Below, in pieces: positions 28,199-55,111 of a stretch of DNA of 64,000 bases. Source of the DNA: an uncultured Chloroflexia bacterium. GTDB lineage: Bacteria > Chloroflexota > Limnocylindria > Limnocylindrales > CSP1-4. Location: assembly GCA_963752475.1 (NCBI GenBank), contig CAVVYR010000001.1, forward strand, positions 32,001 to 96,000, in the 5' to 3' direction. The translations under genes and the position numbers were made by a program. The notes beneath the pieces are model-generated. The model was given only the letters and a program-made list of their open reading frames with translations. It ran no database searches and had not been told where the DNA came from. Positions within the stretch are counted from its first letter, which is position 1. The number at the start of each line of letters is the position of its first letter.

Positions 28199-28223
28199 GG
28201 CCCCCCCGTGGGTCGCTCGTCGA

Positions 28224-36764: not shown

Positions 36765-37618
36765 GAGCGGGCGGGCCACCAGCCGGTGCGGAACGACTCG
36801 GCTTCGGAGCGCTCGAGCATCGTCTCGTAGAGCTCGACATCGAGGCGGTTGAGCTCGCGGATGCGCTGGCGCAGCTCCGGATCGAGCTGGTCGACGCCGG
36901 GACGCTTGTCGTTCACGTTGGCCCGGACCTGGTTGGGGATGGCATAGCCCAAGCGCGTGCCCAGGCGGCGCAAGTCGCGGTTCATGTGCTCCGCGAAGAG
37001 GATCATCGCGAAGTGCGCGTCGATGTGCTCGATGGCCTCGGCCAGCATGTCGTCGGTAGTGGCGCCGTACTCGACAGCAGGCCGGCCGGAGATGGCCCGG
37101 ACCTGCTGGTTGTCCGCCTCGATCCGCTGGAGGCCAAAGACCCAGTCCTCGAGCGAGAGGTCCCGATCCTCGATCATCTGCCGCTCGCGGGCCGCGCGGC
37201 CCTCCTTGGCGGGTACGACCTGACGGTAGTGGTAGTAGTGCGACATCACCCGATCGACCGGGTCGCGCAGGACCGCCACGTACCGACACTCATGTGGAAC
37301 CAGGCGATGGGTGCCATACGAGAGGTGGCCCATCACGAATCGAAGCTGTGCCCGCCGCTCCTCCGGCAGGTTCTCGAACTCGCGCGGGTGCATCGAACCC
37401 TCGAGGCCGGGCGCATCGTAGAGATAGACGCGCTCGTCGGGCTCGTAGGCCTGGCCCATGGCCTGCCGCAGGGACGTCCCGGCCGTCTTGGGAATGTGCA
37501 GGAAGATGAGCGTCCAGTCGTGGCGCGGACGGAAAGCGACAAAAACCCGGTGTGCAGCGTCACGGACGCGGTCGGTCGATACCACACGTGCAGGATGCCA
37601 CTGATACCCATCTGCCAT
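36761..37618 (-). CDS. Sulfotransferase family 2 protein (start uncertain)
   Basis: FLHIPKTAGTS, LRDPVDRVMSHY and IRELNRLDVELY motifs. Confidence 0.88.
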   Translation of the reverse strand: MADGYQWHPARVVSTDRVRDAAHRVFVAFRPRHDWTLIFLHIPKTAGTSLRQAMGQAYEPDERVYLYDAPGLEGSMHPREFENLPEERRAQLRFVMGHLSYGTHRLVPHECRYVAVLRDPVDRVMSHYYHYRQVVPAKEGRAARERQMIEDRDLSLEDWVFGLQRIEADNQQVRAISGRPAVEYGATTDDMLAEAIEHIDAHFAMILFAEHMNRDLRRLGTRLGYAIPNQVRANVNDKRPGVDQLDPELRQRIRELNRLDVELYETMLERSEAESFRTGWWPARS

Positions 37619-37747
37619 CGGCCGTCTATCCTAGCGACTGATGCATCGACGAAGAGGGATGGGCGCGGAGCTGGATCTCCGCTTGTCTCCCGCGACTTCC
37701 AACACGAAGAACCGCCTCGGCGACCGCCCAGCATCTGGGGCGGCCGA

Positions 37748-38600
37748 GTGACGCAACGAACCGCAGATCAGCACATCGCGCAGATCGTCCCCGCCGAGAA
37801 GTGGCCGGTCCTCGGCTGGGGTGAACTCTGGCGCATGCGCCGCATCCTGTTCGTGCTCGCCCAGCGCATCCTCAAGGTGCGCTACCAGCATACGGCGTCT
37901 CGGCATCCTCTGGGTCGTGCTGCAGCCGCTCATCCTGGTGCTCATCGTCAGCGTCTTCATGGGCTTCGTCATCGGCCGCGGCATGCGGGGGATCTGCCCT
38001 TCGCGGTCTGGCTCTTCCCCGCCTGGGTCGCCTGGCGAACGTTCCAGAAGGTCGTCAACGAAGGGGGCGGCAGCGTCAATGCCAACGGCGCGCTGGTCCA
38101 GCGCATCTACCTGCCGCGAATCTTCTTCCCGATGGCCGTGTCTCTCGCCAGCCTCGTCGACCTGGTCTTCATGATGCTGGCGCAGCTGGCTCTGCAGGCA
38201 GCGTACGGCATCGTTCCCGGCAAGGGCATGCTGCTTGTCCCGGTCGCGGTCGTGATCATGTACATGGCCGCCCTCGGGTTCTCGTTCTTCTTCTCCTCGT
38301 CATCGCTGCAGTACCGCGACATGGACATCATCAAGCCGCTGCTCGTGCAGGCCTGGTTCTGGATGTCGCCGATCATCTACCCGGCGACGCAGATCCCCGA
38401 GGATGTCCGGACGTTCTACTGCCTGAACCCAATGGCGGTCGTCATCGAGTCCTTCCGCTACGGGCTTCACGAACTCGACGCCGCAACCGCCGACGGAAGC
38501 CTGGGTCCTCGGCTTCTCGACGGCCTTGATCGCGCTCATCGCCGGCTACTTCTACTTCCGGCGACATGAACCGCTGTTCGCGGACTTCCTGGGCGAATGA
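37748..38600 (+). CDS. wzm: Polysaccharide ABC exporter permease (frameshifted)
   Basis: LKVRY..LGILWVVLQPL, LVQRIYLPR, YRDM, WMSPIIYP, LNPM and FADFL motifs. Confidence 0.88.
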
Positions 38601-39388
38601 GCGAGACACGAGCTGGCCATCGAGGCCGAGGGCCTGGGCAAGTCGTTCCGACTCGCCCGACGGCCGGCGAACGGCGCGCTACTCGACCGCATCGCCGGCG
38701 TGCTCTCGCGCAACGGCCGCCCTGATGACGACCTAGGAGGGACAAGTGATGTGGGCGCTCCGGGACGTCGAGCCTGCATGTCCCGCGGGGCGAGATCTAC
38801 GGCGTCATCGGACGCAACGGCTCCGGCAAGACGACATTGCTCAAGCTCCTTGCGCAAGTCACCGCGCCGACGGAGGGTCATGCCACCGTGCGCGGCCGCG
38901 TGGCTCCGCTGCTGCAGGTCGGTGCCGGTTTCCACCCCAGCTCACGGGCCGCGACAACATCGCGCTCAGCGGCGCCATCCTGGGCATGAGCGTAGAGGAG
39001 GTCCAGGAGCGCTTCGACGACATCGTCGAGTTCTCCGAGATCGGCAAGTACCTGGACCAGCCGGTGAAGAACTACTCCAGCGGCATGTACGCACGCCTGG
39101 CCTTCAGCGTGCGCCTCACATCTGCCGGCCGAGATCATGCTCATCGACGAGGTCCTGTCGGTGGGCGATGCTGACTTCCAGCAGAAGGCGCAGCGCCACA
39201 TGAAGGAGACGCTGACGCGATGGTCGCACGGTCGTCTACGTGGGCCACGGGCTGCACATCGTGCGCGAGTCTGTGCTCGCACGCGTTGGTTCTCGGACGC
39301 GCGGCCAAGGACCGTCTTCGAGGGTGAGGCCGAACGACGCTGCCGACTACTACATGGAAGAGGTCGTCAAGCAGCCCGCGTCGGCTAG
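38597..39388 (+). CDS. wzt: Polysaccharide ABC exporter ATPase (frameshifted; no C-terminal CBM visible)
   Basis: WALRDV, GRNGSGKT, LTGRDNI, YSSGMYARLAFS and IDEVLSVGDADFQQK motifs. Confidence 0.9.
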
Positions 39389-41399: not shown

Positions 41400-42465
41400 A
41401 GGCGAGACAGCAGGCGCGCGCTCAGCGGCTTGGCCTGGCTACGACCGGCGCGCGCGCGTTCGACGGCCCCGGCCAGGTAGCGCCGCTTCCGCCGGGCGGC
41501 AGGCATCGCCCGCCACAGTTCCGGCACCGCAGCGCAGGCGGCGCGGATCGGCGAAGAGCACGAAGACCCACGACTGCAGCTCGCGCAGGGCGACCCAGGG
41601 CAGGTCGCGCAGCAAGCCGCCGAGCTCCTCGTTCTTCAGCTGCATCAGCCGCTGGTTGCGCCAGGAGAGCGCGCGGACGCGCGGCGGATTGGAGAGGTTC
41701 GCGGCGGCCACGTCGCGCCAGCCGCTCACACCGGTGTCCCCTCCTCCACGGGCGTGCCAGGCGCGGGCGGCCGGCTCGAACCAGGCGCCCCAGCCGAGCC
41801 GCTGCAGCCGCCACGCGAGGTCGACGTCTTCCTTGTAGGCGAAGAAGTCCTCGTCGAGGACCTCCCAGCCACCGCCGGTGCGCGGCTCGCGGGCCTCCTC
41901 GAGCGCCGAGCGACGGAAGACCGGCGCAGGCCCGTCGGCACCCCACACCGGGATCGGCACGGTAGGCACCCGGGATCGCGGACGACCGTCGCGCTGGTCC
42001 CGGCTCACGACGCGTCGGTCGCGATGCATGACCAGGCCGGCGGTGTCGATGACGTCGGTGCGAGCGCCGGGCCCGTCCAGCCGCCACACCAGGCCCTGCA
42101 CGGCCGCCACTCGCGGCCGCTCTTCGAGCGCCGCCACGGACGCCTCGAGGAAACCGGGGTCGAGCTCCACGTCCTGGTTGAGCAGCAGCACGGCCTCGCC
42201 GCGAGCGGCCGCGATGTTGCGGTTGTGCGCCGGGGCATAGCCCAGGTTCTCCGCTGATTCGACGAGCCCGATACGGTCATCGGCCGCGGCACGCTCCCGC
42301 AGCCACTCGACGCTGCCGTCGCCCGAGCCGTTGTCGAAGATGAGCAGCTCGTAGTCCTCGAGCGTCTGCGCCGCCACCGAGTCGAGGCACCCGGGCAGCC
42401 ACTCGAGGCCGTTCCAGGTCACCAGCGAGATCGGTGACCGCCGGCACGCTGTCCCTGCCCATCAC
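41400..42465 (-). CDS. GT2 glycosyltransferase, rhamnosyltransferase-like (ends approximate)
   Basis: VTWNG, DNGSGDGS, NLGYA, LLLNQD and FFAYKEDVDLAWR motifs. Confidence 0.85.
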
Positions 42466-43412
42466 GCGCGCCCGGCGGACCGGCGCTGGAGCGCGAACAT
42501 CGCCTGCACCAACGGACGCAACGGACGCGCGGTGTCGGCCTCGAGGTGCTCGCGGTAGAAGCGCTCGTGCGAGTCGACGATGGCGCGCTTCACCCGCCGT
42601 CGGGTCTCGAGCTGCTCGGGATCGAGCTCGCCGTCAGGCCGTCGCACGTGGCTGCTGCTCGACTTCTCGTGTGTGGCTGCGGCCGTGCCCACGTAGCGCA
42701 CGCGCCAGCCGGCCTGGGTCACCCGCAGGCAGAGGTCGAGGTCCTCCGCGTAGAACCAGTAGCGCTCGTCCCAGCCGCCGACCGCCTCGAGCGCCTCGCG
42801 CCGGATGAGCAGGAATGCGCCCGAGCAGGCCTCGACGTCGTGGACCGTGCTCGTGTCCAGCCAGGTCATGCGGTAGTGGCCGAACCGCTGCGAGCGTGGG
42901 AAGAGCCCGGTCGAGCCGGGTCTTGTACCAGAGCGAGTCGAAGGGGCTGGGGATGCCGCGATGGCAGGCGTGATCGATGCCGCCGTCGGGCAGGTCCAGC
43001 CGACAGGTGGCGATGCCCACGTCCGGGTCCGTCGCCCACCTCGTCGAGCGACCGCCCCGAGCGTGTCCGGCTCGAGCATGACGTCCGAGTTCATGAACAG
43101 GATCCATTCGGTGGCGGCGCCCTCGGCACCCCGGTTGCAGGCCGCGGAGTAGCCGGGGTTGTCGCTGGTGGTCGCGACGCGCAGGCGCGGCCCATCGCTG
43201 CTGCCGGCCACCGAATCGGGCAGGACGAACTCCTCGAGCGGATCCACATCGACCACCACGACATCGGCCGGTACGGGATCGGCCGCGAAGACCCTCGCGA
43301 GGCACCGTCCCAGGAGCTCCGGATTGCGATAGTCGACCACGACCAGGGTCACATCGACGCGCGCCTTCCCCGCGGCCGTGGGCTCGAGGAGCGTCCTGGT
43401 CACCGTGGCCAT
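42462..43412 (-). CDS. GT2 glycosyltransferase (WbbL-like rhamnosyltransferase)
   Basis: NPGYSAACN, FMNSD, CSGAFLL and GWDERYWFYAEDLDLC motifs; local frameshift pair. Confidence 0.85.
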   Translation of the reverse strand: MATVTRTLLEPTAAGKARVDVTLVVVDYRNPELLGRCLARVFAADPVPADVVVVDVDPLEEFVLPDSVAGSSDGPRLRVATTSDNPGYSAACNRGAEGAATEWILFMNSDVMLEPDTLGAVARRGGRRTRTWASPPVGWTCPTAASITPAIAASPAPSTRSGTRPGSTGLFPRSQRFGHYRMTWLDTSTVHDVEACSGAFLLIRREALEAVGGWDERYWFYAEDLDLCLRVTQAGWRVRYVGTAAATHEKSSSSHVRRPDGELDPEQLETRRRVKRAIVDSHERFYREHLEADTARPLRPLVQAMFALQRRSAGRA

Positions 43413-43531
43413 CGGCGCGTGCGTCCTCCCTTCGTCGTGTCGGTCGTTCCGCCCGACAGTATGGGGCCTTGCTCGAGGCCGGTCCTTGGTATCGTCTCGG
43501 AGCACATCCGCACCGAAGGAGAGCCCCCATC

Positions 43532-44275
43532 GTGAAGGGCGTCGTTCTCGCCGGCGGGACCGGTTCCCGTCTGCATCCGCTCACGCTGGTCACCAACAAG
43601 CACCTCTTGCCGGTGCACGACCGGCCCATGATCCACTTCCCGCTGCAGACGCTCGCGGGCATGGGCATCGACCAGGTCATGGTCATCCTCGGCGGCCGCA
43701 GCATCGGCGACATCGTGGAGCTGCTGTCGGACGGTCAGGACTTCGGGCTGGACCTCAGCTACCGCTACCAGCGCGGCTCACTGGGCATCGCCCACGCCAT
43801 CGGTCTGGTCCGTGAGTTCGTGGGCGATGAGGCCTTCTGCGTCGTCCTCGGCGACAACATCCTGCGCGGTGATGACCTCGCCGACGTCGCGGCCGAGTTC
43901 GAGAACGGACCCTGGGGCGCCGGCACCCTGCTCTACAAGGTGGATGACGCCAAGCGCTTCGGCGTGGCCGAGTTCGACGACGAGGGCAACGTCATCGGCT
44001 TCGAGGAGAAGCCCGAGGAGCCCAAGAGCGACTCCATCCCCATCGGCGTCTACTTCCTGCGGCCCGATGCCTTCGAGGTCATCGAGCAGCTCACGCCCAG
44101 CGGTCGCGGCGAGTTCGAGATCACCGACGTGCTCAACCACTACGTCGGCGACGGCGGGCTCTTCGCGCGCCACTACGAGGGTCGCTGGCACGACGCGGGC
44201 ACCATCGAGTCACTGCTGGAAGCGGCCACGATGGCCGCGAACGAAGACGAGCCTCAGCCGTCCTCAGGAAGCTGA
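43532..44275 (+). CDS. rmlA: Glucose-1-phosphate thymidylyltransferase
   Basis: KGVVLAGGTGSRLHPLT...NKHLLPV, LGDN, EEKP, SGRGEFEITD and WHDAGT motifs. Confidence 0.92.
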   Translation: MKGVVLAGGTGSRLHPLTLVTNKHLLPVHDRPMIHFPLQTLAGMGIDQVMVILGGRSIGDIVELLSDGQDFGLDLSYRYQRGSLGIAHAIGLVREFVGDEAFCVVLGDNILRGDDLADVAAEFENGPWGAGTLLYKVDDAKRFGVAEFDDEGNVIGFEEKPEEPKSDSIPIGVYFLRPDAFEVIEQLTPSGRGEFEITDVLNHYVGDGGLFARHYEGRWHDAGTIESLLEAATMAANEDEPQPSSGS

Positions 44276-46302
44276 TAGAGGACCCGCAGCTCCACGTCCT
44301 CGGTCAGGTCGGTCTCGTAGCGCAGTCGGTCGCCGTCGACGGTCATGCCCTCGGTGGACTCGACGACGGTCGCACCGTCGGGCAGGTCGATGCGCACCGA
44401 TAGCGGCACTGCGCGCGCGCCGGGCTGCTTCTGGACCACCAGGCTGTACTCCCAGCCGTCATCGGTCTCGACGGCCACCTCAGGCACGGACCAGAAGTAG
44501 CTCAGGCTGGACTCACCCGGCTCCATCAGCAGGTTGTTGGCGAAGGCCGTCCGGCCGGCCTCGTCCGTGATGCGATCCGCGTCAAAGACCTCGCTGGAGG
44601 CGGTCTCGCCGCTGGCCGTGACCAGCTCGCTGCCCTCTGGCACGAGCGTGCGGATGTAGCCGCCGTACCAGCCGATCTCGCTCTCGGAGAACGAGCGGAT
44701 AGCCTCGAACTCCTCACCCTCCCTGAGGGCGTCGTTCTGCCAGTCGAGACGCACGCTGTTGACGGCGTTGCCCTCCGAATCGAGCTTCACCACCAGCGAA
44801 TCGGAGCGGTCGATGACGAGGTTGTACTTCGACGTCGGGGCCACGTTCGACTCGACCACGTAGAGGTAGTCACCCGGATCGGTCCGGACCTCGCCCGCCC
44901 AGCCGTTCTCGAGCACCAGCTCCTGGGCCTCGGGGTCGGCCAGCCAGACGAGGGCCTGGCGCTCCGCGCCGATGTCCTCGAGCGCCTCGATCATCGCGCC
45001 CCACTGGTCCGGCGGCAGCGACAGCAAGCGCTGCATCAGCGTACGCGCCAGGGCATCGAGCACGTCCTTGCGGCCCTCCAGATCCCCGGGTGCGCCACGG
45101 GTCGCACCGAGCAGCGTGAGCGTCACGTCGCCCGGTTCAACGGTCACGTCGTAGGCCGGCACCTCGACCGCCCCCACCACCTCCAGCAGCCGGTCGATGG
45201 CATAGGTGGTGATGGCGATGACGCCGTCGACCTCGGTGCCGTCGGCTTCGATGGCGTAGAACTCGGCTGACTTCTCCGCGCCGGTGGGGAAGTCAGGCGA
45301 CCAGGCCGCATCGGCCAGGCGCCAGGACTGCGGATTGCCCTCGGCATCGGCCGCCAGCAGGATCTCGGTCAGCTCCTCGGGCGGCTCGACGAAGGGCAGG
45401 TCCTTCTGCAGGTCCAGGTCGTAGACGTTGATGAACTCCTGGCTCGTCAAGCTGCCGTCCTCGACGGTGATCAGACCGACCGTGCCGGCGTAGCCACCCG
45501 CAGGACGCAGCTCGGCAGGGTTCTGAGCCAGGACGAGGTACCGCTTCTGTCCGCCCCAGCCCATGAGCTCGGGCGCGATGTCGTCGATCTCGCGGTACTG
45601 CTCGAGCAGCGGCAGGTAGGTGTCCAGCGGCTCGGCCACCAGGTCACGCGCCTCGAGGATCTGCTCGGCCGCGTCGTCGGGGATGGCCGCGAGGTCCTGT
45701 TGGGCGTCGGCGATGAGCTGGTCGATGCGATCGACATCGGCGGACGACGTGGCGATGAACTCGACAAGACCGGCGGTCAGCTCGAAGTCTGGATCGGCCT
45801 CGTTCTGCTCGCGCAGGGTGACGACCTCATCGACGAGACCGAGGCCGATGTCTCCGACCTCGACGAGCGACTCCGCGGCGGCCACGAGCGAAGTCGCCGC
45901 GTCGTACTGCGCCGCGACTGCGCCCACGCTGCCGACGAGCTTGACGAGCGGATCGTCGATGGCCTCGGAGATGGGCTCAAGGTGGCCCGCGAGCACGGCG
46001 AACTCGGCGCTGAGCTCGTCGAGCGTGGCCCGCTCGAGATTCGCCGGCTCCAGCCCTTCCACGTCGTCCGAGAGCCGCTGCGCTGAAGCACGCAGCTCCC
46101 GAACGTCGTCCTGCAGCGGCAGGTAGCGACCGGCGGTCGCGACCACGAGCGCCACCACGATAGCCACGATGAAGGCCAGGAAGACGGCCACCATGAGGCG
46201 ACCGACCCTGGGCTCAGCATCCTCCGTAGGCGCTACCGGAGGCGGTGGAGCCGGAGGTGGCGGTGCTGCTGGTGGCGGTGGTGGCGGGTAGTAGTCCGTC
46301 AC
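44254..46302 (-). CDS. DUF4012-domain membrane-anchored protein
   Basis: N-terminal TM, helical stalk, YLVLAQNPAELRPAGG, SPDFP, VDGVIAI and QKQPG motifs. Confidence 0.88.
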   Translation of the reverse strand: MTDYYPPPPPPAAPPPPAPPPPVAPTEDAEPRVGRLMVAVFLAFIVAIVVALVVATAGRYLPLQDDVRELRASAQRLSDDVEGLEPANLERATLDELSAEFAVLAGHLEPISEAIDDPLVKLVGSVGAVAAQYDAATSLVAAAESLVEVGDIGLGLVDEVVTLREQNEADPDFELTAGLVEFIATSSADVDRIDQLIADAQQDLAAIPDDAAEQILEARDLVAEPLDTYLPLLEQYREIDDIAPELMGWGGQKRYLVLAQNPAELRPAGGYAGTVGLITVEDGSLTSQEFINVYDLDLQKDLPFVEPPEELTEILLAADAEGNPQSWRLADAAWSPDFPTGAEKSAEFYAIEADGTEVDGVIAITTYAIDRLLEVVGAVEVPAYDVTVEPGDVTLTLLGATRGAPGDLEGRKDVLDALARTLMQRLLSLPPDQWGAMIEALEDIGAERQALVWLADPEAQELVLENGWAGEVRTDPGDYLYVVESNVAPTSKYNLVIDRSDSLVVKLDSEGNAVNSVRLDWQNDALREGEEFEAIRSFSESEIGWYGGYIRTLVPEGSELVTASGETASSEVFDADRITDEAGRTAFANNLLMEPGESSLSYFWSVPEVAVETDDGWEYSLVVQKQPGARAVPLSVRIDLPDGATVVESTEGMTVDGDRLRYETDLTEDVELRVLYQLPEDG

Positions 46303-46309
46303 CCGAGGC

Positions 46310-47209
46310 TCACGCCGATGGGATGCGCTCCGCGATCACCACGAAGCGCGGGGAGGTCTCCGCGTAGTCCAGGCACGTCTGCAACGTGAGGATCTCGCGA
46401 TCGGTGCCATCGAGATACTCGAAGGCGTCGTATTCGACGAGGGGGTGGATCTCCGAGACCTCGTACTCGGCGATGCTGCCGTCAGCCATATCGACCTCGA
46501 CGAGGTCGCCGGTGCGGACGTTCCAGAGCTCGAGCAGAACACCCTCGCGGGCATGCCCGTAGACATAGGTGTTGGAACCTTCCCCGGGCCAGGCCGTGTC
46601 CGGGAAGTGTGCGACGGCATCGTCAGGCGCATCCCAGCCATTGCCCTCGACGATCGGCAGGTCGATGCCCAGCCGGCGCATGCGCAAGTGTGTCGCCGGC
46701 GGAGCCAGCAGCATGTCGGCTGCGGGCGGCGGCTCGATCGGGCTCTCGCGGAACGCGCTCGGCGCTTGCTCCACGTAGCCTTCCGGTGGCAGGATCGAGG
46801 TCTTGGCCAGGCCGCCTTGGCAACGGATGTTGATGACCGGTGTGGAGTTGGGGAGGCGGACGGAGACGCGACGCTGTCCGGCCTTGTTCCCGAAGTGGAA
46901 GATGGAAGCGACGTAGCCGTTTCCCTTCTGGCTCCTGCGCTTGGACGCCAGGAACTTGTCGCCTGGATGCTGCCTCTCGACAAGGAGGAACTTGACCGGC
47001 TGGCCGGCGACGGGCCGCCCGGTCTTCACATCCTTGACGTAGGCCTCGATCTTCAGGTTCTGATCGCATCGGACCACGCGTGGGGTCTGGATGAAGACAC
47101 GCGTGGTCGGCTGTCCGATGTAGCCAAGCGCCGGCAGCGCCGCGGTGATGACCAGGGCGCTGCTGATGAGCAGGCTGAACAGGAACGTGGGGTACTTCAG
47201 GCGGCGCAT
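46310..47209 (-). CDS. Sortase with an extra N-terminal basic Ig-like domain
   Basis: Signal peptide; PGEGSN.YVYGHA (His), LTLQTC (Cys) and RFVV (Arg) catalytic triad. Confidence 0.9.
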   Translation of the reverse strand: MRRLKYPTFLFSLLISSALVITAALPALGYIGQPTTRVFIQTPRVVRCDQNLKIEAYVKDVKTGRPVAGQPVKFLLVERQHPGDKFLASKRRSQKGNGYVASIFHFGNKAGQRRVSVRLPNSTPVINIRCQGGLAKTSILPPEGYVEQAPSAFRESPIEPPPAADMLLAPPATHLRMRRLGIDLPIVEGNGWDAPDDAVAHFPDTAWPGEGSNTYVYGHAREGVLLELWNVRTGDLVEVDMADGSIAEYEVSEIHPLVEYDAFEYLDGTDREILTLQTCLDYAETSPRFVVIAERIPSA

Positions 47210-48694
47210 CTACTCGGTCTCCTCCGCGTCGGCCACGCTGGCACTCGCAGTGTCGGTCGCCGGCGCGCTGGGGATCCCCCACCACGTCCGGGCTCGTTCG
47301 AGGGCATCGCCGACGATCAACCCTTCCAGGTCCTCGGCTTCCTCCCCTGTCGCTTCGGTGATGTAGTCGGTGAACTCCGTCCAGCCGCTCGCGGGGTCGT
47401 AGGCCCCGAAGCCGCCGTCGAAGGGCGCGAAGGCCTCCGCCTCGCCATCCTCCTGGAAGTCCTTCATGGCTCGCATGTAGGCAGTCAGGAACGAGGTGAC
47501 GGTGGAGCCCTCGGTCTCGAGGAAGTCATCCGACACAGCGAGGACGTCACCGCCGAACTCGCCGTCCGTGCCGTAGTTGCGGTGGGCCGCGATGACCGCC
47601 AGGGGCAGGCCCTGGGCGAAGCCGTCAGCGGCGTCGGCCGCATCGATGGCAGCGATGTCGATGTCACCCTGGAGCAGGCCCAGCAGCGGCTCCTCGACCG
47701 CCTTGAGGTTCACCTCATCGAGGCCGGCGGACTCGAAGTACTCCTCCCGCAGCGCGGTCTGCACGGGGCCACCGGCGAGTGCCTTCGGCGGCGAGGCCAC
47801 CGTGATCGCGCTGGAGGCCGGTCGGCCGGCGAGGTCGCTGGTGGGGTTGAGCTTGGTGCTGGTCGAGGCCTGAGCCACGTTGAGCGTGTGCTCGGAGACG
47901 AAGGCCTCGATATCCGGGAACTCGTCGAGCTCAGCGAAGGCGTAGGCCGAGAGCTCGCCCCAGCCGCCATCATCCTTGCGGCGACCGAAGCCGCCGTCGA
48001 GCGGCTTGAAGGCGTCGGCGTCATCGGCCTTCTTGCTGAACTTGCGCAGGCCACGGAGGTACGACTTGGTGAAGGCGCTGACGGTCGAGGGCTCGGCGGC
48101 TACGAGGCCGGGAGCTGCCATCAGCAGAGAGCCGCCGAAGGCACCGTCCTCGCCGGCGTAGTTCTCGTACCCGGCCACTGCCTGGAGCGAGGGGTCGTCG
48201 GCGAAGGCCTCGAGGGCCTCGATGGTGTCGACGACCGCGAAGTCAGCCTCGCCAGACTGCAGAGCGTCGAGCGGCGAGTCGACAGCGACGAGCTCGACCG
48301 AGTCGAAGCCGGCGTCCTCGAAGAAGTCGTTGGAGATAGCCCGCTGCAGCGGAGCGGGTCGGTCGTCGCTGCCCAGCGCCACGATGAGCTCGCTGGTGAG
48401 GGGAGCGAGGGCCGCTTTGGCCGGTGCCGCCTGCACGAGCGTGATGGGCTCGGGCGTGGGCTCGGGCGTGGCCGCGGGCCTGGCGATGTTCGAGCCGGTG
48501 TCCTTCTTCGTATCGCTATTCTTCTTCTTGTTGTTGTTCTTCTTGGTGTTGCCGCCAGTCTTGGGCGTCTTCGGCGCTGGTGTGTCGTACGTCGGCGAGG
48601 CGCTCTCGTCGGCCACACCCGGATCGATGGCCGCGGCGACCGGGATGGGCACCACGAGGGCAGCCGCGAGCGCGACAGCCGCGAAGGGACGCAT
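47210..48694 (-). CDS. Secreted protein with two tandem SsuA/NMT1-like single-lobe repeats
   Basis: Signal peptide; two alignable repeats, each with FF/YF.AG.D.V.L, LQ.G..D.A, STV..F...Y.R and DGGFG. Confidence 0.75.
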   Translation of the reverse strand: MRPFAAVALAAALVVPIPVAAAIDPGVADESASPTYDTPAPKTPKTGGNTKKNNNKKKNSDTKKDTGSNIARPAATPEPTPEPITLVQAAPAKAALAPLTSELIVALGSDDRPAPLQRAISNDFFEDAGFDSVELVAVDSPLDALQSGEADFAVVDTIEALEAFADDPSLQAVAGYENYAGEDGAFGGSLLMAAPGLVAAEPSTVSAFTKSYLRGLRKFSKKADDADAFKPLDGGFGRRKDDGGWGELSAYAFAELDEFPDIEAFVSEHTLNVAQASTSTKLNPTSDLAGRPASSAITVASPPKALAGGPVQTALREEYFESAGLDEVNLKAVEEPLLGLLQGDIDIAAIDAADAADGFAQGLPLAVIAAHRNYGTDGEFGGDVLAVSDDFLETEGSTVTSFLTAYMRAMKDFQEDGEAEAFAPFDGGFGAYDPASGWTEFTDYITEATGEEAEDLEGLIVGDALERARTWWGIPSAPATDTASASVADAEETE

Positions 48695-48699
48695 GCGCC

Positions 48700-50097
48700 T
48701 CAATGCCCGGGCCGCCGGATAAGCGCCGGGATGGTGCGCAGCACGATCTCCAGATCCAGCCAGAACGACCAGCGGTCGATGTAGGCCAGATCGAGCTCGG
48801 CGCGCTGATCGAAGTCTTCGTCCAGCCGGGAGCTCACCTGCCAGAGGCCGGTGATGCCCGGCTTCATCGAAAGACGGCGCTTGTGCCATATGTCGTACTC
48901 CTGGACTTCACGGGGCGGTGCAGGTCTGGGGCCCACGATGCTCATCTCCCCCCGCACGACGTTCACGAACTGGGGCAGTTCATCGAGACTATAGCGGCGC
49001 ATCAAACGACCCGCCGGTGTGACCCTTGGGTCGTCGATGAGCTTGAACGCCGCGCCTGAGGTATCGGACAGCGCCTCGACCTCCCCGAAGCGCTCCTCAG
49101 CGTCGGCATACATCGTGCGGAACTTGAAGATGGTGAAGGGCCGGCCGTGGAGGCCGATGCGCGTCTGGCGGAAGATGACGCCGGGGCCCTGACTCGCTCG
49201 CAGCGCCACCCACAGGATCGCCAGAAGCGGAGACAGCAGCACCAGCGCGGCGATCGACGCGCCCAGGTCGAAGACACGCTTGGCGACGTGGCCGACGAGC
49301 TCATCGGGGCCGCTGGCATACGAGATGACCGCGGTGCCATCCAGCTCCTCGAGCGAGCGGTCGGCCGAGAGCAGCCGCGGCACCACCACCGGCACGCGGA
49401 TGAGCTTGCCCTGCTCGTGCGCCATCTGCGCGAGCGGCTCGACGGACTTCCACTGGTCCTCGCCGACGCAGATGGCGACCTCGTCCACGACGCGATCGGA
49501 CAGGACGGCAGGCAGGTCGATGAGCTGGCCCCAATACATGCCCGAGGGCACGCCCTGCGGAGGCTCGTCACCGAGGTAGCCCGCGACCTGGACTCCGAGG
49601 ACGCTGTGCTCATGGATCACCTGCGCGAAGTCCGTGGCCTCGTGTCCGGTGCCGAGGATGAGCACGCTGCGCACGTTGTAGCCACGGCGCCGCACGAACA
49701 TGAACGACGAACGCACGATCGCGCGGAGGATCACCGCCAGCACACCCTGGAGCGGGAAGAGCAACAACACCCAGCCCGAGTCGGCGCGATCGGTGGCCGC
49801 CATCAGGAGCGTGGCCGTACCGAGCACGGCCAGCCAGACCGTGGCGCGTACGACGGTGCGGGTCTCACCCGCCAGCGTCCAGTGCGCACGCAACCGATAG
49901 GCACCGTTCACATAGAGCAGCGCGACCCAGGCGATGCCGTAGACCACAGCCCGTGCCCAGAAGGTGTCGAGGAATGGGTCGAGAGGAGTTTCCGGGTGGG
50001 CAAAGGCTCGATAGACCGACAGACTCAGCGCGATGGCGAGGACACCGTCGGCCAGCATCAGGACGGCGCGAAGCGCACCCCCGTGTCGGCGGATCAT
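48700..50097 (-). CDS. Priming polyprenyl-phosphate sugar phosphotransferase (WcaJ/WbaP family)
   Basis: N-terminal TMs; KRVFD, FKFRTM, DDPRVT..GR..R.SLDELPQ, GEMSIVGPRP and KPGITGLWQV motifs. Confidence 0.95.
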   Translation of the reverse strand: MIRRHGGALRAVLMLADGVLAIALSLSVYRAFAHPETPLDPFLDTFWARAVVYGIAWVALLYVNGAYRLRAHWTLAGETRTVVRATVWLAVLGTATLLMAATDRADSGWVLLLFPLQGVLAVILRAIVRSSFMFVRRRGYNVRSVLILGTGHEATDFAQVIHEHSVLGVQVAGYLGDEPPQGVPSGMYWGQLIDLPAVLSDRVVDEVAICVGEDQWKSVEPLAQMAHEQGKLIRVPVVVPRLLSADRSLEELDGTAVISYASGPDELVGHVAKRVFDLGASIAALVLLSPLLAILWVALRASQGPGVIFRQTRIGLHGRPFTIFKFRTMYADAEERFGEVEALSDTSGAAFKLIDDPRVTPAGRLMRRYSLDELPQFVNVVRGEMSIVGPRPAPPREVQEYDIWHKRRLSMKPGITGLWQVSSRLDEDFDQRAELDLAYIDRWSFWLDLEIVLRTIPALIRRPGH

Positions 50098-50330: not shown

Positions 50331-50399
50331 GCGGGACGTCCGGGACGATGGGATGCCGAACCAGGCGCCGTGACCATCGCCAACTCAGGGAGGAATGCC

Positions 50400-51428
50400 T
50401 TGCGCCGTTCAATCACGATCATCTCGCTCCTGGTGGCGATAGCGGTCTTGTTCACTGCCATGCCCGCCACAGCTCGGAGCAAGATCGCGCTGGGTATCTC
50501 GAACCCCAACGCAGACTACGTCGGTGTGGTCGAGAACCACAAGGCTCGATACGGTGTCTACCCAGCCATGTTCTCGCTCTGGAGCAGCTGGGGCAGCCGG
50601 GGCCAGGGCACGAACAAGCCCGCTCCGGTCGCTGGTGCGGCGTGCACCCCGGACAAGGGCACCTGCTACTTCCCTCGTGAAGCGGTCGACTACCTGATGG
50701 ACCGGAACATCACGCCGATCGTCTGGTGGCAGTTCACCAACCCCGAGTTCCCGAGCCAGGGGGCGTTCAGCCGCTACAGGATCATCACCAACGGCACGCA
50801 TGACGCCTACATCCGCAAGTGGGCCGCGGAGCTCAAGGCCGCGTCCAAGCGTCACAAGGGCCGCCCCATCGGTGTCCGCCCCTTCCACGAGGCCACCGGT
50901 ACCTGGTTCCCGTGGTCCATCGGCCGCTTCGACAACACCGTGCAGAAGTACAAGGCGGCATGGCGTCATCTGCACACGCAGTTCCAGAAGGTCGGTGCCC
51001 GCAAGCACGCACGCTTCATCTGGAGCAACTACACGCCGCGCAAGGGCTCGTACCCCGGCGACAAGGTCATCAACTACGTCGGCTTCACGGTGCTGAACTT
51101 CGGCTCGCAGAAGAAGTGGCGCTCGATGACCTCGATCGTCAACAACTTCGTGAAGCGGACCAAGCAGTTCAGCAAGCGGCCCATCCTTATCACCGAGGTC
51201 GCCTCCCATTTCAGGGGCGGCAATAAGGCCAAGTGGCTCAAGGGCGGCTATCTGAAGGCCTACAACAAGCACCCCCGGATCAAGGGCATCCTCTATCTCG
51301 ACACCAACGTCCCGCAGAGGGGACAGCGGCACCCCGACTGGCGGTTGGTCCAGCCCAAGAACGGCTCCGCGGTGAACGCCTATCGGCAGCTCGTGAACAA
51401 CCCCAGGTTCAAGGGCAAGCTGCGGTAG
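50400..51428 (+). CDS. Secreted GH26-family glycoside hydrolase, paralog 1
   Basis: Signal peptide; G.HDAYI..WA, RPFHEATG.WFPW (acid/base E), YPGD..INYVG and ITE (nucleophile E). Confidence 0.88.
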   Translation: MRRSITIISLLVAIAVLFTAMPATARSKIALGISNPNADYVGVVENHKARYGVYPAMFSLWSSWGSRGQGTNKPAPVAGAACTPDKGTCYFPREAVDYLMDRNITPIVWWQFTNPEFPSQGAFSRYRIITNGTHDAYIRKWAAELKAASKRHKGRPIGVRPFHEATGTWFPWSIGRFDNTVQKYKAAWRHLHTQFQKVGARKHARFIWSNYTPRKGSYPGDKVINYVGFTVLNFGSQKKWRSMTSIVNNFVKRTKQFSKRPILITEVASHFRGGNKAKWLKGGYLKAYNKHPRIKGILYLDTNVPQRGQRHPDWRLVQPKNGSAVNAYRQLVNNPRFKGKLR

Positions 51429-51505: not shown

Positions 51506-52093
51506 ATGAGAATGTCGGCCCAACAGACCTCGATCCCCGAGGTCGTGCTCGTCAAGCACGACGCCTTCCAGGACGACCGCGGCTTCCTGATGGAGGCCTT
51601 CCACGCCGGTGACTTCGCGAAATACGAGCACCTGGGCCTGCCCAGCACGTTCGTGCAGATCAACCACAGCCGCAGCCGTGATGGCGTCACCCGAGGCCTC
51701 CACTTCCAATGGCAGCCACCGATGGGCAAATACATGCGCGTGGCCCGTGGCAGGGCCTTCCTGGTGGCCGTGGACATCCGGCCCGGCTCCCCCACCCTCG
51801 GCCGGTACGTCTCGTGTGTGGCCGATGACGAGAACCACCTCGCGATGTGGGCGCCGGCCTGCTTCGCACGCGGCTTCGCCACACTCTCGGACGTCGTCGA
51901 CATCGAGTACCTCGTGACCGGCAACTACAACGGCGCGGCAGAGTCAGGCATCGCCTGGAATGACCCGGACGTGGGCATCGAATGGCCCCTGGCCAAGCCC
52001 GTCACTTCCGAGCGCGACAGCAGCGCCCAGTCGCTGGCCGAGTGGCTGGCGAAGCCGGAGGCCCAGCACTTCCGCTACGAGGATTGGAGTTAA
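51506..52093 (+). CDS. rmlC: dTDP-4-dehydrorhamnose 3,5-epimerase
   Basis: DDRGFLME, QINHS.S..GVTRGLHFQ, VDIRPGSPT and IAWNDP motifs. Confidence 0.95.
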   Translation: MRMSAQQTSIPEVVLVKHDAFQDDRGFLMEAFHAGDFAKYEHLGLPSTFVQINHSRSRDGVTRGLHFQWQPPMGKYMRVARGRAFLVAVDIRPGSPTLGRYVSCVADDENHLAMWAPACFARGFATLSDVVDIEYLVTGNYNGAAESGIAWNDPDVGIEWPLAKPVTSERDSSAQSLAEWLAKPEAQHFRYEDWS

Positions 52094-52099
52094 CCCGTC

Positions 52100-52963
52100 G
52101 TGATCGACCCGACCCTCCCCGGGATCTTCATCAGTGGCGACAAGGGCCGTCTGGGCCGAGCGCTGCGCACGGCCGCGCCAGGACCGATCGACGGCTGGGA
52201 CATGCCCGAGCTGGATCTCGACGATCCCTCGACCTGCGCCGCGCTGGTCCGCGAGAGGCAGCCGCGGTTGGTGATCCACACCGCCGCCATGACCGCGGTC
52301 GACCAGGCCGCGCTCGAGCCCGACGTCGCGCTACGTCGCAACGGCCAAGCCGTGGGCGCCCTGGCCGGGGCCTGTCGAGAGATCGAGGCTGGCCTGCTGC
52401 TGGTCTCCACCAACGAGGTCTTCAGCGGCGACCGCACCGACGGTCGTCCCTACCTCGAGGATGATGAGACCGGTCCCATCAACTCCTACGGCGCCAGCAA
52501 GCACGCCGGCGAACTGGCGGCGCTCGAGGCGTTCGATGGTGCCGATGGGCTCTGGATCGCCCGCACCGCCTGGCTCTTCGGGCCACCGGGCAACGACTTC
52601 CCGGACAAGATCACCGCGGCTGCCGACAAGGTCGAAGGCCCGCTTCCGGTCGTCACCGATGAGGTCGGCTGTCCCACCTACGCACCCGACCTCGCGCGCG
52701 CCATCTTCGAGCTCGTGGAGCGCACCGACGGTGGCGTCTTCCACCTCGTGAACTCCGGCTATGCCTCACGCTACGACTGGGCCCAGGCCGTGCTCGCCAT
52801 CCGCCGACCCGGGCGGCAGATGCGCCCCATCGGCAGGGGCGAGTTCGAGCGCAGCTCCGAGCCCCCGCCGTGGGGGGTGCTGGACACCTCGAAGGCGGCC
52901 GCGGCCGGCGTCGAGCTGCGGCCGTGGCAGGACGCCCTGGAGGAGTACCTCCGTGAAGCGTAG
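52100..52963 (+). CDS. rmlD: dTDP-4-dehydrorhamnose reductase
   Basis: G.KGRLG, HTAAMTAVD, YGASK, RTAWLFG, GCPTY and WQDAL motifs. Confidence 0.92.
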   Translation: MIDPTLPGIFISGDKGRLGRALRTAAPGPIDGWDMPELDLDDPSTCAALVRERQPRLVIHTAAMTAVDQAALEPDVALRRNGQAVGALAGACREIEAGLLLVSTNEVFSGDRTDGRPYLEDDETGPINSYGASKHAGELAALEAFDGADGLWIARTAWLFGPPGNDFPDKITAAADKVEGPLPVVTDEVGCPTYAPDLARAIFELVERTDGGVFHLVNSGYASRYDWAQAVLAIRRPGRQMRPIGRGEFERSSEPPPWGVLDTSKAAAAGVELRPWQDALEEYLREA

Positions 52964-53972
52964 GACGCTGTTCATCCCCCTCCTCGTCATCGCCGCGCTG
53001 CTCATCTCGACCCTGCCGGTGGCGGCGCGTGGGCAGATCGCCATCGGCGTCTCCGATCCGCGCGGCTCGAACCTCACGGTGCTGCAGGACCACATGAAGC
53101 TGATGGGTGGCCAGAAGCCGGGGCTGTGGTCGCTTTGGAGCAACTGGGGCAGTCGGGGCGGCAGGTTCTCGTGCGTGCGTGGCCACGGCAACTGCGCCTT
53201 CCCGCTGGAGATGTCGCGGGAGCTGCTGAAGCGGGGCATCACGCCCGTCATCTGGTGGCAGCCGGTGAACCCGGCGCGCGCATCGAGCCCCAAGTTCTCG
53301 AGCTACAAGCGGATCATCCATCACAAGCACGACGCGTACATCCGGGCCTGGGCGCGCGACCTCAAGCGGGCCTCGCGGGCCAATGGCGGCCGACCCATCG
53401 TGGTTCGCTTCGCGCACGAGGCCACGGGCCACTGGTTCCCGTGGTCGATCGGCAAGCACGGCAACACGATCAAGAACTACAAGAAGGCCTGGCGCCACAT
53501 CGACCGCATCTTCCGGCAGGTCGGGGCCCGCAAGCACACCCGCTTCCTGTGGAGCAACTTCCTGCCCAAGCCCAAGGCGTACCCCGGTCACAAGGTCGTC
53601 GACTACGTCGGCGCCACGATCATGAACTACGGCAACTCCGGCGTGGAGGGCAAGCACAAGTGGACGAGCCTGCCCAAGCGGGTGAAGCGCGTGAACGCGC
53701 TGGCCCGGGAGTTCACCAGGAAGCCGCTCTTCCTCGTCGAGGTCGGGTCCAACCATCGCGGTGGCAGCAAGGCCAACTGGATCAGGAGTGGCTACCACAA
53801 GGTCTGGCGGAAGTACCCCAGGGTCAAGGCCATCATGTACCTCGACTCCGACCAACCGCACGAGAACGTGTCGCACCCCGACTGGCGCCTGGTGAAGCCG
53901 TGGGACGGCTCTGCTGTGCGGGCGTACCGGCAGGTCGCCAACTCGTGGAGGTTCAGGGGCCGCCTCAAGTAG
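52953..53972 (+). CDS. Secreted GH26-family glycoside hydrolase, paralog 2
   Basis: Signal peptide; RFAHEATGHWFPW, YPG..VVDYVG and LVEVGS motifs. Confidence 0.88.
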   Translation: MKRRTLFIPLLVIAALLISTLPVAARGQIAIGVSDPRGSNLTVLQDHMKLMGGQKPGLWSLWSNWGSRGGRFSCVRGHGNCAFPLEMSRELLKRGITPVIWWQPVNPARASSPKFSSYKRIIHHKHDAYIRAWARDLKRASRANGGRPIVVRFAHEATGHWFPWSIGKHGNTIKNYKKAWRHIDRIFRQVGARKHTRFLWSNFLPKPKAYPGHKVVDYVGATIMNYGNSGVEGKHKWTSLPKRVKRVNALAREFTRKPLFLVEVGSNHRGGSKANWIRSGYHKVWRKYPRVKAIMYLDSDQPHENVSHPDWRLVKPWDGSAVRAYRQVANSWRFRGRLK

Positions 53973-54111: not shown

Positions 54112-55111
54112 GTGCGTCGCCTCTCCTTCATCCCGCTGCTGGTCATGCTCGCGGTCCTGTGTACGGCCTTGCCCAGCGCAGCGCGTGGCCCCATCGCCAT
54201 CGGCATCTCCGACCCCCGTGGTGGCAACCTCGCCGTCCTCGACCAGCACATCGCCCAGGTCGGTGCCAAGCCGGCGCTGTGGTCGCTGTGGAGCAACTGG
54301 GGCAGCCGCGGGGGGAGCGGCGTGTGCCGGGCCACGGCAGGCAGCTGTTCGTTCCCATCGGCCACGGCCAACGAGCTCCTGAAGCGTGGCATCACGCCCG
54401 TCATCTGGTGGCAGCCGGTCGATCCGGCACGCCCCGCGAACCGCCAACTACAACAGCTTCAAGCGCATCGCCCAAGGCAAGCACGACGCCTACATCTTCG
54501 CCTGGGCCAAGGCTCTGCGGCAGGTGTCGAAGAACAACGGCAACCGCTCGATCGTGGTCCGCTTCGCGCACGAGGCCTCGGGCAACTGGTTCCCGTGGTC
54601 CATCGGCAAGGCCGGCAACACGGTCAGCAACTACAAGGCCGCGTGGCGGCGCATCGATCGCATCTTCCGTCAGGCCGGCGCCAGGAACAACACCAAGTTC
54701 CTGTGGTCGAACCTGATGCCCTCACGGCTGCACTACCCAGGCGACCGCTACGTCGACTACATCGGCGCGACGGTCATGAACTACGGCAGGGCCCGGCAGT
54801 GGCGGTCGATGAACAAGGTCGTGACCAAGGTCGTCTCGCGTGCCCGCAAGTTCAGCCGGAAGCCCATCTTCCTCGCCGAGGTCGGCTCCAGCCACCAGGG
54901 CGGGAACAAGGCCGGCTGGATCAGGACCGGCTACCTGCAGACCTACAAGCGGTACCCACAGGTCAAGGCCATCATGTACCTCGACACGAACGCCCCGGCC
55001 CTGCGCGTCAAGCACCCCGACTGGCGCCTGCTCAAGCCGGCTGGTAGCTCGGCCGTGGCGGCCTATCGCGCGCTCGCCAAGTCGCCCAAGTTCAGGGGTC
55101 GCATCAAGTAG
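54112..55111 (+). CDS. Secreted GH26-family glycoside hydrolase, paralog 3 (one frameshift near 54435)
   Basis: RFAHEASGNWFPW, YPGDRYVDYIG and LAEVGS motifs; N-terminus parallels paralog 2. Confidence 0.85.

Follow-up and report, generated by a model that had tools for sequence, protein, structure and literature searches.

A DUF4012 protein with a predicted LCP-like core, encoded beside a substrate-fused sortase in a glycan locus of an uncultured Chloroflexia bacterium

Which protein might fix an exported glycan to the cell surface when the locus for its synthesis lacks a canonical ligase gene? This question is raised by a stretch of 64,000 nucleotides of contig CAVVYR010000001.1 from an uncultured Chloroflexia bacterium (hereafter the window; G+C approximately 68%), in which four consecutive genes encode a priming transferase, a protein with two partial substrate-binding protein (SBP) repeats, here called the half-SBP protein, a sortase and a member of the DUF4012 family. 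The original prediction, made from the DNA sequence, held that this operon may couple the export of a polymer to its attachment onto sortase-handled proteins. Our analysis leads us to propose that the operon supplies the first and last steps, initiation and attachment, of a cell-envelope glycan pathway in a presumably monoderm Chloroflexota bacterium, with the DUF4012 protein acting like a LytR-CpsA-Psr (LCP) phosphotransferase, a reading to which we assign a probability of roughly 0.45. The coupling idea gained from the LCP-like fold of the DUF4012 core, from the recognition of a sortase substrate within the module and from synteny; it lost the four-gene order as a conserved unit and the half-SBP protein as a substrate.

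Predicted fold of the DUF4012 protein

Membership of the protein in DUF4012 (PF13196) is supported by a score of 102.8 bits against a gathering score of 28. This large domain-of-unknown-function family, with 13,207 representatives at E ≤ 1e-3 among 50%-identity clusters, has members in many uncultured phyla and, among gut bifidobacteria, in exopolysaccharide loci. A cytoplasmic Pro-rich tail and a transmembrane helix are followed by a helical domain, an alpha/beta core and a C-terminal beta-sandwich (Table 1). The topology is that of LCP proteins, namely a single N-terminal hydrophobic helix and then folded extracytoplasmic domains, the orientation being inferred from basic residues that precede the helix in homologues.

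An AlphaFold2 model of the full-length protein, built on a 53-sequence alignment, reached a pLDDT of 90.4 and a pTM of 0.87. When this model was searched with Foldseek, only weak beta-sandwich matches were returned (the N-domain of M1 aminopeptidase, ITIH1 and ribophorin/Ost1 of the oligosaccharyltransferase; query-normalized TM-score, TMq, approximately 0.2). The core was therefore modelled alone (residues 205-435; 48 sequences including Actinomycetota; pLDDT 80.4, pTM 0.73), and an LCP signal appeared only then. In the Foldseek search of the PDB with the core model, LCP structures occupied ranks 1-27 with E values of 2e-5 to 4e-3 and TMq of 0.43-0.56, over alignments of approximately 240 columns with 8-15% identity. 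They included 3pe5, LytR (8qty), BrpA (9cy9), 3okz, 3owq and 3qfi, the Cps2A structures 3tep, 3tfl, 4de8, 2xxp, 3tel and 2xxq, and TagV, TagU, TagT, Staphylococcus aureus LcpA (6uex) and MsrR. An independent profile built from 46 Chloroflexota LCP proteins (A5) recognized 24 of the 25 rows listed at these ranks as LCP sequences, the exception being 4obm. LcpA of Actinomyces oris (5v8c) stood at rank 34, and the other matches from rank 28 onward were mainly Hsp70 ATPase domains with a probability of at most 0.18 and a TM-score of approximately 0.14. Judged on a predicted model of pLDDT 80.4, the DUF4012 core has the fold of the LCP catalytic domain, and the match is specific to that fold. An ESM Atlas search with the core, PF13196 excluded, returned no usable match.

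The DUF4012 protein had been put forward as the ligase. The LCP-like fold gives this candidate structural support, while a link to LCP proteins at the level of sequence did not emerge, so that it stands as a candidate by predicted structure. It is worth noting that a conserved Y-x-L-P lies at the C-terminus of this clade's DUF4012 proteins, many of which finish with it (RYRLP); in the window it reads YQLPEDG (44254-44280). We considered this C-terminal Y.LP (LPEDG) as a sorting signal and rejected it, since many homologues stop directly after LP and have no hydrophobic tail.

The sortase, its Ig-like substrate and their conserved neighborhood

Species-representative genomes were scanned with a DUF4012 alignment (A1), which yielded 80 loci. 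Sixty-nine were taken as Chloroflexota-type, including one that is titled Propionibacteriales and carries the same module (L010); the other 11 are from Actinomycetota (10) and Pacebacteria (1). Because single-linkage clustering of open reading frames (ORFs) merged Wzz-kinase, GT4 and epimerase proteins into one family (F2) and Big_1, sortase and SBP proteins into another (F0), genes were counted by targeted tblastn with the window proteins and the proteins of well-formed loci. The denominators are the 61 loci with at least 1.5 kb of upstream sequence, the 54 with at least 4.5 kb upstream and the 55 with at least 2 kb downstream. Gene names were backed by Pfam annotation of eight loci and by recurrent ORF families.

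A Big_1-like gene lies no more than 3.3 kb upstream of the DUF4012 gene in 59/61 loci, and on the same strand within 2.3 kb in 57/61. The sortase gene is directly upstream of the DUF4012 gene in 44/61 loci; both genes are present together in 43/61, and neither was counted in a single locus (L058), although an upstream ORF there was assigned to family F0 by clustering. Around this core, a LysM protein is encoded upstream in 23/54 loci and a PHP phosphatase in 8/54, and a gene for a Wzz+GNVR+P-loop kinase protein follows directly downstream in 21/55, while the window's own locus gave no Wzz/kinase match. The conserved unit is Big_1-sortase-DUF4012, usually inside a capsule-like assembly cluster. 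That dozens of species-level genomes share the adjacency makes it more than chance, and the capsule-assembly-type neighbors (Wzz+GNVR+P-loop kinase, LysM and PHP) count in favor of a role in glycan attachment. Two such loci occur in each of three metagenome-assembled genomes (L002/L003, L023/L047 and L041/L065).

The order priming transferase-SBP-sortase-DUF4012, whose conservation among related genomes had been named as a check, was found in just 5/54 loci (L004, L005, L006, L008 and L018, the last being the locus most like that of the window, at 67% identity). A further locus, L014, reads SBP-Big_1-sortase-DUF4012 up to the point where its contig ends upstream. A priming transferase gene is upstream on the same strand in 11/54 loci and anywhere in the locus in 15/69. 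The priming transferase and the half-SBP protein were gained in the sub-lineage of the window, where the context also changed to Wzm/Wzt.

Within the window, the four minus-strand ORFs lie between 50097 and 44254, and their third-position G+C of 0.83-0.88 is as in real genes. The half-SBP start was set at M66 (48694), because the 494-residue database form matches at 100% identity and coverage; with this start the successive intergenic gaps are 5, 0 and 7 nt, the last between the sortase TGA at 46310 and a GTG start of the DUF4012 gene at 46302. The database form of the DUF4012 protein begins later, at M37 (46194). No terminator-like site was found on the minus strand within the operon. A GH26-like gene (50370+) diverges from it on one side, and an RmlA gene (43469-44275+) converges on it from the other. 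The tight same-strand arrangement with gaps of 0-7 nt was thereby confirmed, and each gene could be placed against Pfam and NCBIfam families.

These gaps, and the uninterrupted minus strand, speak against the idea that the genes are co-transcribed and otherwise loosely related, the priming transferase serving the glycan locus, the half-SBP protein being a degenerate transport remnant, and the sortase and DUF4012 genes forming a separate surface-protein module that landed there by chance. The rarity of the four-gene order, the absence of priming transferase and SBP genes from most Big_1-sortase-DUF4012 loci, and a half-SBP protein that lacks half of the SBP profile all fit such a history. On the other side, the DUF4012 gene adjoins a priming transferase gene in Bifidobacterium longum too, a priming transferase recurs in the related loci at the frequencies given above, and Big_1-SBP fusions in L023 and L060 tie an SBP-like domain to the module. 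We consider a chance assembly improbable.

The priming transferase is a full-length member of TIGR03025 (363.3 bits against a cut-off of 295.55; profile positions 6-441 of 445) and also carries a CoA_binding_3 domain, whereas its scores with the WcaJ and WbaP models were under their cut-offs. The half-SBP protein consists of a signal peptide, a K/N/PT-rich linker and two NMT1-like repeats that are mutually 37% identical (E 1e-26). Its ORF scored 39.7 bits with Pfam NMT1, at profile positions 98-212 of 216 only; scored apart, repeat 1 matched positions 6-67 and repeat 2 positions 99-212. Each repeat thus covers only parts of the NMT1 profile, and the two lobes expected of a Type II periplasmic SBP (NMT1/SsuA-like) were not recovered. 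Forty-seven homologues were found; a search of PDB sequences gave no relative, and ESM Atlas returned NMT1-type SBP clusters alone. No BPD_transp_1 permease is encoded beside the gene, the nearest in the window being at 61.3-63.4 kb. With neither an LPxT motif nor a hydrophobic or basic tail, the half-SBP protein was ruled out as a sortase substrate. Fusions of Big_1 to SBP-like regions through a Pro/Thr-rich linker were seen in L023 (7616-9646, minus strand), L060 (7894-9831, minus strand) and also L015 (5812-7284, minus strand); these genes stand divergently beside the DUF4012 gene, and the NMT1 match of the L023 fusion is complete (5-209 of 216). The half-SBP protein is most likely a lineage-specific accessory that serves as a binding module for polymer or wall.

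Sortases are described as cysteine transpeptidases of six known classes. The sortase domain in the window scored 76.7 bits with PF04203 (cut-off 26.6) and 48.4 bits with TIGR01076 (cut-off 39.35), and alignment to solved sortases and to relatives showed that the catalytic H219, C279 (in LTLQTC) and R288 are kept. None of the class A-F models exceeded its cut-off (the best were class D, 47.1/165 bits; E, 29.4/160; C, 27.9/160; F, 25.7/166), and the best PDB sequence matches were class D and class C sortases.

The N-terminal domain of the sortase was aligned (A4) with separate as well as fused relatives. Most relatives have, immediately before the sortase gene, a gene for a protein of approximately 170-220 residues that combines a signal peptide and an Ig domain of Big_1-like type with a tripartite sorting signal. 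This signal begins with LP[N/R/G/P/D]T[S/D/T][T/A], continues through a short spacer to a hydrophobic helix, and closes with an RR-rich tail. Among 65 Big_1-like hits, the complete signal (LPxTxx, hydrophobic stretch and basic tail) was seen in 36, and six have the hydrophobic tail and basic end without LPxT; 18 are truncated, frameshifted or SBP-fused. The remaining five are in-frame Big_1-sortase fusions that keep GL[P/A]xT (the window, with GLAKTS, and L004, L005, L012 and L018). The N-domain homologues scored 28-34 bits with Pfam Big_1 (cut-off 34.9), a match that the window's own N-domain did not reach. The N-domain of the sortase is best read as the substrate itself, an Ig domain of Big_1-like type that has been joined to the enzyme. 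The original prediction gains from this, in that the module does include a genuine sortase substrate; as to a separate anchored protein, no tripartite signal was found among the window ORFs checked, where only the fusion-internal GGLAKTS is left. The simplest reading of the sequence is that the fusion would be cut between Thr and Ser of LAKTS by its own or a neighboring sortase domain, the Ig domain being released as an acyl intermediate.

Three observations on these proteins may be added. In nearly all Big_1-like proteins, G/A-Y-x-G-Q/E directly follows the N-terminal hydrophobic segment (GYIGQ in the window, 47111-47125), and this looks like a conserved signal-peptidase site that would leave an invariant mature N-terminus starting with Tyr. 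Among 49 sortase hits, the last position of TLxTC is Ser (LTLQTS) in 27 and Cys in 18, including the window, with no motif match in four. The Ser-type sortases (L021, L026-L031, L035, L037, L038, L040, L043, L044, L046, L048, L049, L051, L053-L056, L061-L064, L068 and L072) keep the His and Arg residues, and their loci retain substrates with the full signal, for example L043 and L055; a lineage of serine-nucleophile or inactive sortases would be unusual. Finally, L001, L002 and L009 have the order priming transferase-Big_1-DUF4012, as does L003 with a frameshifted Big_1 gene. In the first three the Big_1-like gene ends exactly at CKGGLG, where the LPxT of the relatives starts, with no sortase domain after it, and this sub-lineage looks like one that lost the sortase half of a fusion.

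One dedicated sortase beside one dedicated small substrate might also mean that the sortase polymerizes the Ig-like protein into a pilus- or sheath-like fiber by class C-type chemistry, with the DUF4012 protein as an assembly platform that transfers no glycan. Class C pilus sortases are among the nearest sequences of solved structure, and some loci hold two or three Big_1 substrate genes (L033 and L035). Yet the class C model falls far short of its cut-off, no pilin-type domain or second sortase occurs in the loci examined, the context is consistently one of polysaccharide synthesis, and Big_1-DUF4012 is kept without a sortase in 17/61 informative loci. We regard a fiber as very unlikely.

Neither Big_1 nor sortase was found in the 11 loci of other phyla. 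Several DUF4012 loci of Actinomycetota (L073-L076 and L079) adjoin T2SSE, two T2SSF and TadE genes of Tad-pilus type and a rhomboid protease gene, not polysaccharide genes, so the context of the family differs between phyla.

A candidate attachment mechanism and its weighing

On the proposed reading, the priming transferase would use polyprenyl phosphate to start a polymer that contains rhamnose and may be sulfated, the GT2 enzymes would extend it, and Wzm/Wzt would export it. The DUF4012 protein, acting like an LCP phosphotransferase, would then move the polymer from polyprenyl-pyrophosphate to an acceptor, either the Ig-like protein, as LcpA does with GspA in A. oris, or peptidoglycan. Cleavage at L(P/A)xT by the sortase would link the Ig domain to the wall, so that protein and polymer would be fixed together; in the lineage of the window the cut would fall inside the fusion and separate the Ig domain from the enzyme. 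The tandem half-SBP protein would contribute as an accessory of this lineage, probably by binding polymer or wall.

The best-described precedent is that of A. oris, in which LcpA, with catalytic arginines R149 and R266, is reported to glycosylate GspA before SrtA anchors it to the wall (PMC6381275), lcpA and gspA being adjacent genes (PMC6381275; PMC7831098). This analogy, drawn in the original prediction, was made concrete by the sortase substrate in the module: in both systems an LCP-fold protein (here predicted) is encoded beside a small secreted protein with a sorting signal, and a sortase handles, or here would handle, the latter. The differences are substantial. The LCP-fold protein is here a DUF4012 protein that has extra helical and beta-sandwich domains and no significant LCP sequence similarity, and in which counterparts of R149 and R266 could not be mapped. 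The sortase is dedicated and outside the known classes, unlike the housekeeping SrtA; and the substrate is a Big_1-like Ig domain, sortase-fused in the window, whose glycosylation is proposed by analogy. The module would be a variation on the LCP-plus-sortase theme, its catalytic role being proposed from the predicted fold only.

Two further arrangements are comparable. The streptococcal capsule genes cpsA-B-C-D encode, in this order, an LCP protein, a PHP phosphatase, the Wzz-like CpsC and the tyrosine kinase CpsD. Related loci likewise bring together, clustered on one strand, genes for an LCP-fold protein, a Wzz+GNVR+P-loop kinase and a PHP phosphatase, but with DUF4012 in the place of CpsA and with LysM, Big_1 substrate and sortase genes inserted, while the locus of the window has Wzm/Wzt instead of a Wzz/kinase match. 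Cps2A, prominent among the Foldseek matches, is an LCP protein (PMC7831098). In the exopolysaccharide cluster of B. longum 105-A, a DUF4012 gene annotated as 'auxiliary protein for envelope protein' stands between the priming glycosyltransferase gene cpsD and wzz (PMC5412050). It is thus directly beside a priming transferase and a chain-length determinant, as described there; the published table of that cluster reports no sortase or Ig-like substrate (PMC5412050).

Several results weigh against the DUF4012 protein as an LCP-like ligase. The fold match is moderate, with an rmsd of 6.4-9.3 Å over ranks 1-27 on a model of pLDDT 80. PF03816 (LytR_cpsA_psr) gave no match to the protein at E ≤ 0.01, hhalign comparisons of DUF4012 with LCP in three successively richer alignments gave insignificant probabilities of 0.56%, 1.1% and 0.3%, and the A1 profile run against PDB sequences found coiled-coil noise only (E ≥ 0.11) and no LCP protein. 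The hhalign register was identical in all three runs, pairing YLVLAQNPAELRPTGG..G.YGI with LLVGSD.R....TGERTDTIMV and IDGVIAITTYA.D.LL.VTGPI with IDYVA.I.F.GF..LVD.VGGV. Of the residues invariant in Chloroflexota LCP proteins (D84, D97, R118, D119, D169, R255, R257, R267 and R270), this register pairs one alone with an invariant position of DUF4012, namely D169 (the Asp of IDY) with the Asp of IDGV. Among 99 diverse members of the DUF4012 family, sharing as little as 25% identity with the window's core, E24 never varies, and each of D97, R171 and K172 is retained by 90% or more of the sequences (core numbering); the conserved basic residues are fewer than those of the LCP Arg cluster, and counterparts of the LCP arginines could not be assigned. 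The passages found that name DUF4012 give no fold, activity or biochemical data for the family: it is cited in a survey of protein families of the candidate phyla radiation (CPR) and listed as a hub gene in a biofilm transcriptome. Furthermore, the fusion has no hydrophobic segment, and hence no membrane anchor, other than its probable N-terminal signal peptide. The sortase is missing from 17/61 informative loci, which implies that it is dispensable for DUF4012 function. A different enzyme in the window, the PMT_2 membrane protein (25544-27073), could instead be the transferase, glycosylating a protein or a glycan from a polyprenyl-phosphate sugar. Canonical LCP genes, which are common in this lineage, also lie within 10 kb in 4/69 related loci. 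In three of these (L022, L025 and L042) they are approximately 4 kb upstream; in the fourth (L052), three LCP genes and a PHP gene are directly upstream of Big_1-DUF4012 and there is no sortase.

The window itself was noted to hold no canonical LCP or WaaL gene, and this was confirmed. Neither LytR_cpsA_psr nor O-antigen-ligase families matched at E ≤ 1e-4 in 141 window ORFs (of the 145 with at least 100 codons and a third-position G+C of at least 0.72, the other four being the operon genes, which were scanned separately), 15 further ORFs contained neither, and tblastn with six Chloroflexota LCP proteins gave no match to the window at E ≤ 1e-3. A canonical LCP protein elsewhere, which had been named as an observation that would undo the idea, turned up in part, in the four related loci; none was found within 10 kb in the five loci with the four-gene order, or in the window. 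The co-occurrence indicates that DUF4012 is not simply a replacement for a missing LCP protein.

These data bear on the alternative that the DUF4012 protein is a non-catalytic, LCP-derived scaffold or regulator, similar to a co-polymerase partner; an LCP protein encoded elsewhere would then carry out the ligation, and the part of the wall-anchored Ig protein and the sortase would be limited to positioning the complex. The lack of recognizable LCP arginines, the insignificant profile comparisons, the four loci with both protein types and the abundance of LCP proteins in the lineage would all be accounted for, as would the large helical domain and beta-sandwich that flank the core and the frequent adjacency of a Wzz/kinase gene. 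Conservation of E24, and of D97, R171 and K172, in the 99 sequences points instead to a conserved ligand or active site, and the window and its five nearest loci offer no LCP gene within 10 kb. A scaffold is a possible explanation, and one we hold to be doubtful. A predicted complex of the DUF4012 ectodomain with the Big_1-sortase fusion (score 0.07, mark 0.32) gave no evidence either way.

If the DUF4012 protein is an LCP-like ligase, a wider proposal can tentatively be made, which we think rather unlikely to hold in full. DUF4012 would be a hitherto unnoticed and very widespread branch of the LCP fold that serves as polymer-to-acceptor transferase for capsules and exopolysaccharides in monoderm phyla (Chloroflexota, Actinomycetota including Bifidobacterium, and CPR). 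In Limnocylindria-like bacteria it would be paired with a dedicated Ig carrier and a dedicated sortase, often with Ser for Cys, so that polysaccharide would be fixed to the wall via a protein stalk, and in the window carrier and sortase would form one self-processing polypeptide. The LCP-like core provides a hypothesis for DUF4012, lipid-pyrophosphate-linked glycan transfer, that is concrete enough for the bench. The trio of Ig-like substrate, sortase and DUF4012, if correctly read, would be the second independent case after A. oris in which glycopolymer attachment is joined to sortase anchoring, and it occurs in a phylum with a poorly understood envelope. For the enzymology of sortases, a naturally occurring fusion of substrate and enzyme deserves attention as well, as do the sortases in which Ser takes the place of the nucleophile. 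Our literature search for PF13196, or for Limnocylindria together with sortase, found nothing; structure-based databases may already record the fold likeness.

The surrounding glycan locus

The region of approximately 30 kb around the operon encodes, by Pfam, GT2, GT4 and GT61-type transferases and RmlA, RmlC and RmlD, together with FkbM-type methyltransferases, three GH26-like proteins, a PMT_2 GT-C enzyme and a Wzm ABC-2 permease. The coordinates of the main features are collected in Table 1.

Table 1. Positions in the window of the operon genes, their domains and neighboring genes of the glycan locus.
Feature	Position	Strand	Remarks
Priming transferase	48700-50097	-	465 aa; first gene of the operon; Bac_transf 219.2 bits
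Half-SBP ORF	47210-48889	-	47210-48694 when started at M66 (494 aa)
Half-SBP repeat 1	~47855-48391	-	middle of SBP profile missing
Half-SBP repeat 2	~47213-47809	-	middle of SBP profile missing
Sortase fusion	46310-47209	-	299 aa; Pfam Sortase 76.7 bits
Signal peptide of fusion	47117-47209	-	
Big_1-like Ig domain of fusion	46817-47116	-	
Retained sorting motif of fusion	46796-46816	-	GGLAKTS
Sortase domain of fusion	46316-46693	-	preceded by a linker; H219, C279, R288
DUF4012 protein	44254-46302	-	682 aa (646 aa from M37); Pfam DUF4012 102.8 bits
DUF4012 transmembrane helix (after the cytoplasmic Pro-rich tail)	46126-46194	-	
DUF4012 helical domain	45565-46125	-	to ~residue 210 (646-aa numbering)
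DUF4012 LCP-like alpha/beta core (predicted)	44890-45582	-	216-430 (646-aa numbering)
DUF4012 C-terminal beta-sandwich	44257-44877	-	440-646 (646-aa numbering)
GT2 glycosyltransferase	41439-42422	-	Pfam
GT2 glycosyltransferase	42462-43505	-	Pfam
RmlA	43469-44275	+	convergent on DUF4012; Pfam
GH26-like gene	50370-51428	+	Pfam
GH26-like gene	52761-53972	+	Pfam
GH26-like gene	54386-55111	+	Pfam
RmlC	51506-52093	+	Pfam
RmlD	52100-52963	+	Pfam
Wzm ABC-2 permease	~37745-38597	+	PF01061; placed by tblastn with Wzm of relatives
Wzt ATPase remnants	38613-39374	+	tblastn segments in at least three frames
PMT_2 / PMT GT-C membrane protein	25544-27073	+	510 aa; dolichyl-phosphate-mannose protein mannosyltransferase-like

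Export by Wzm/Wzt had been noted for this locus from the start. A Wzm-type ABC-2 permease was found, whereas Wzt was seen only as frame-split tblastn segments, and six ORFs tested in its region gave no Pfam match; the Wzt gene is therefore taken to be frameshifted in this assembly. Matches to DHDPS and to a short-chain dehydrogenase are likewise fragmented over overlapping ORFs (27691-28988, minus strand), and split genes of the same kind occur in related loci from long-read metagenome-assembled genomes (L006, L008 and L014). This suggests that the splits are assembly indels, not pseudogenes.

The PMT_2 family (F28) recurs in four sources, counted over the related loci and the window excerpt. 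Two sulfotransferase-family genes (35978-36664 and 36764-37618, minus strand) adjoin Wzm, and sulfotransferases recur in L013 and L018; the polymer may be sulfated. The three GH26-like genes of the window are paralogues. Their family (F4) has members in 19 sources, the window among them, and these commonly follow the DUF4012 gene directly, on the opposite strand; the GH26-like protein is possibly a polymer-trimming hydrolase of the pathway.

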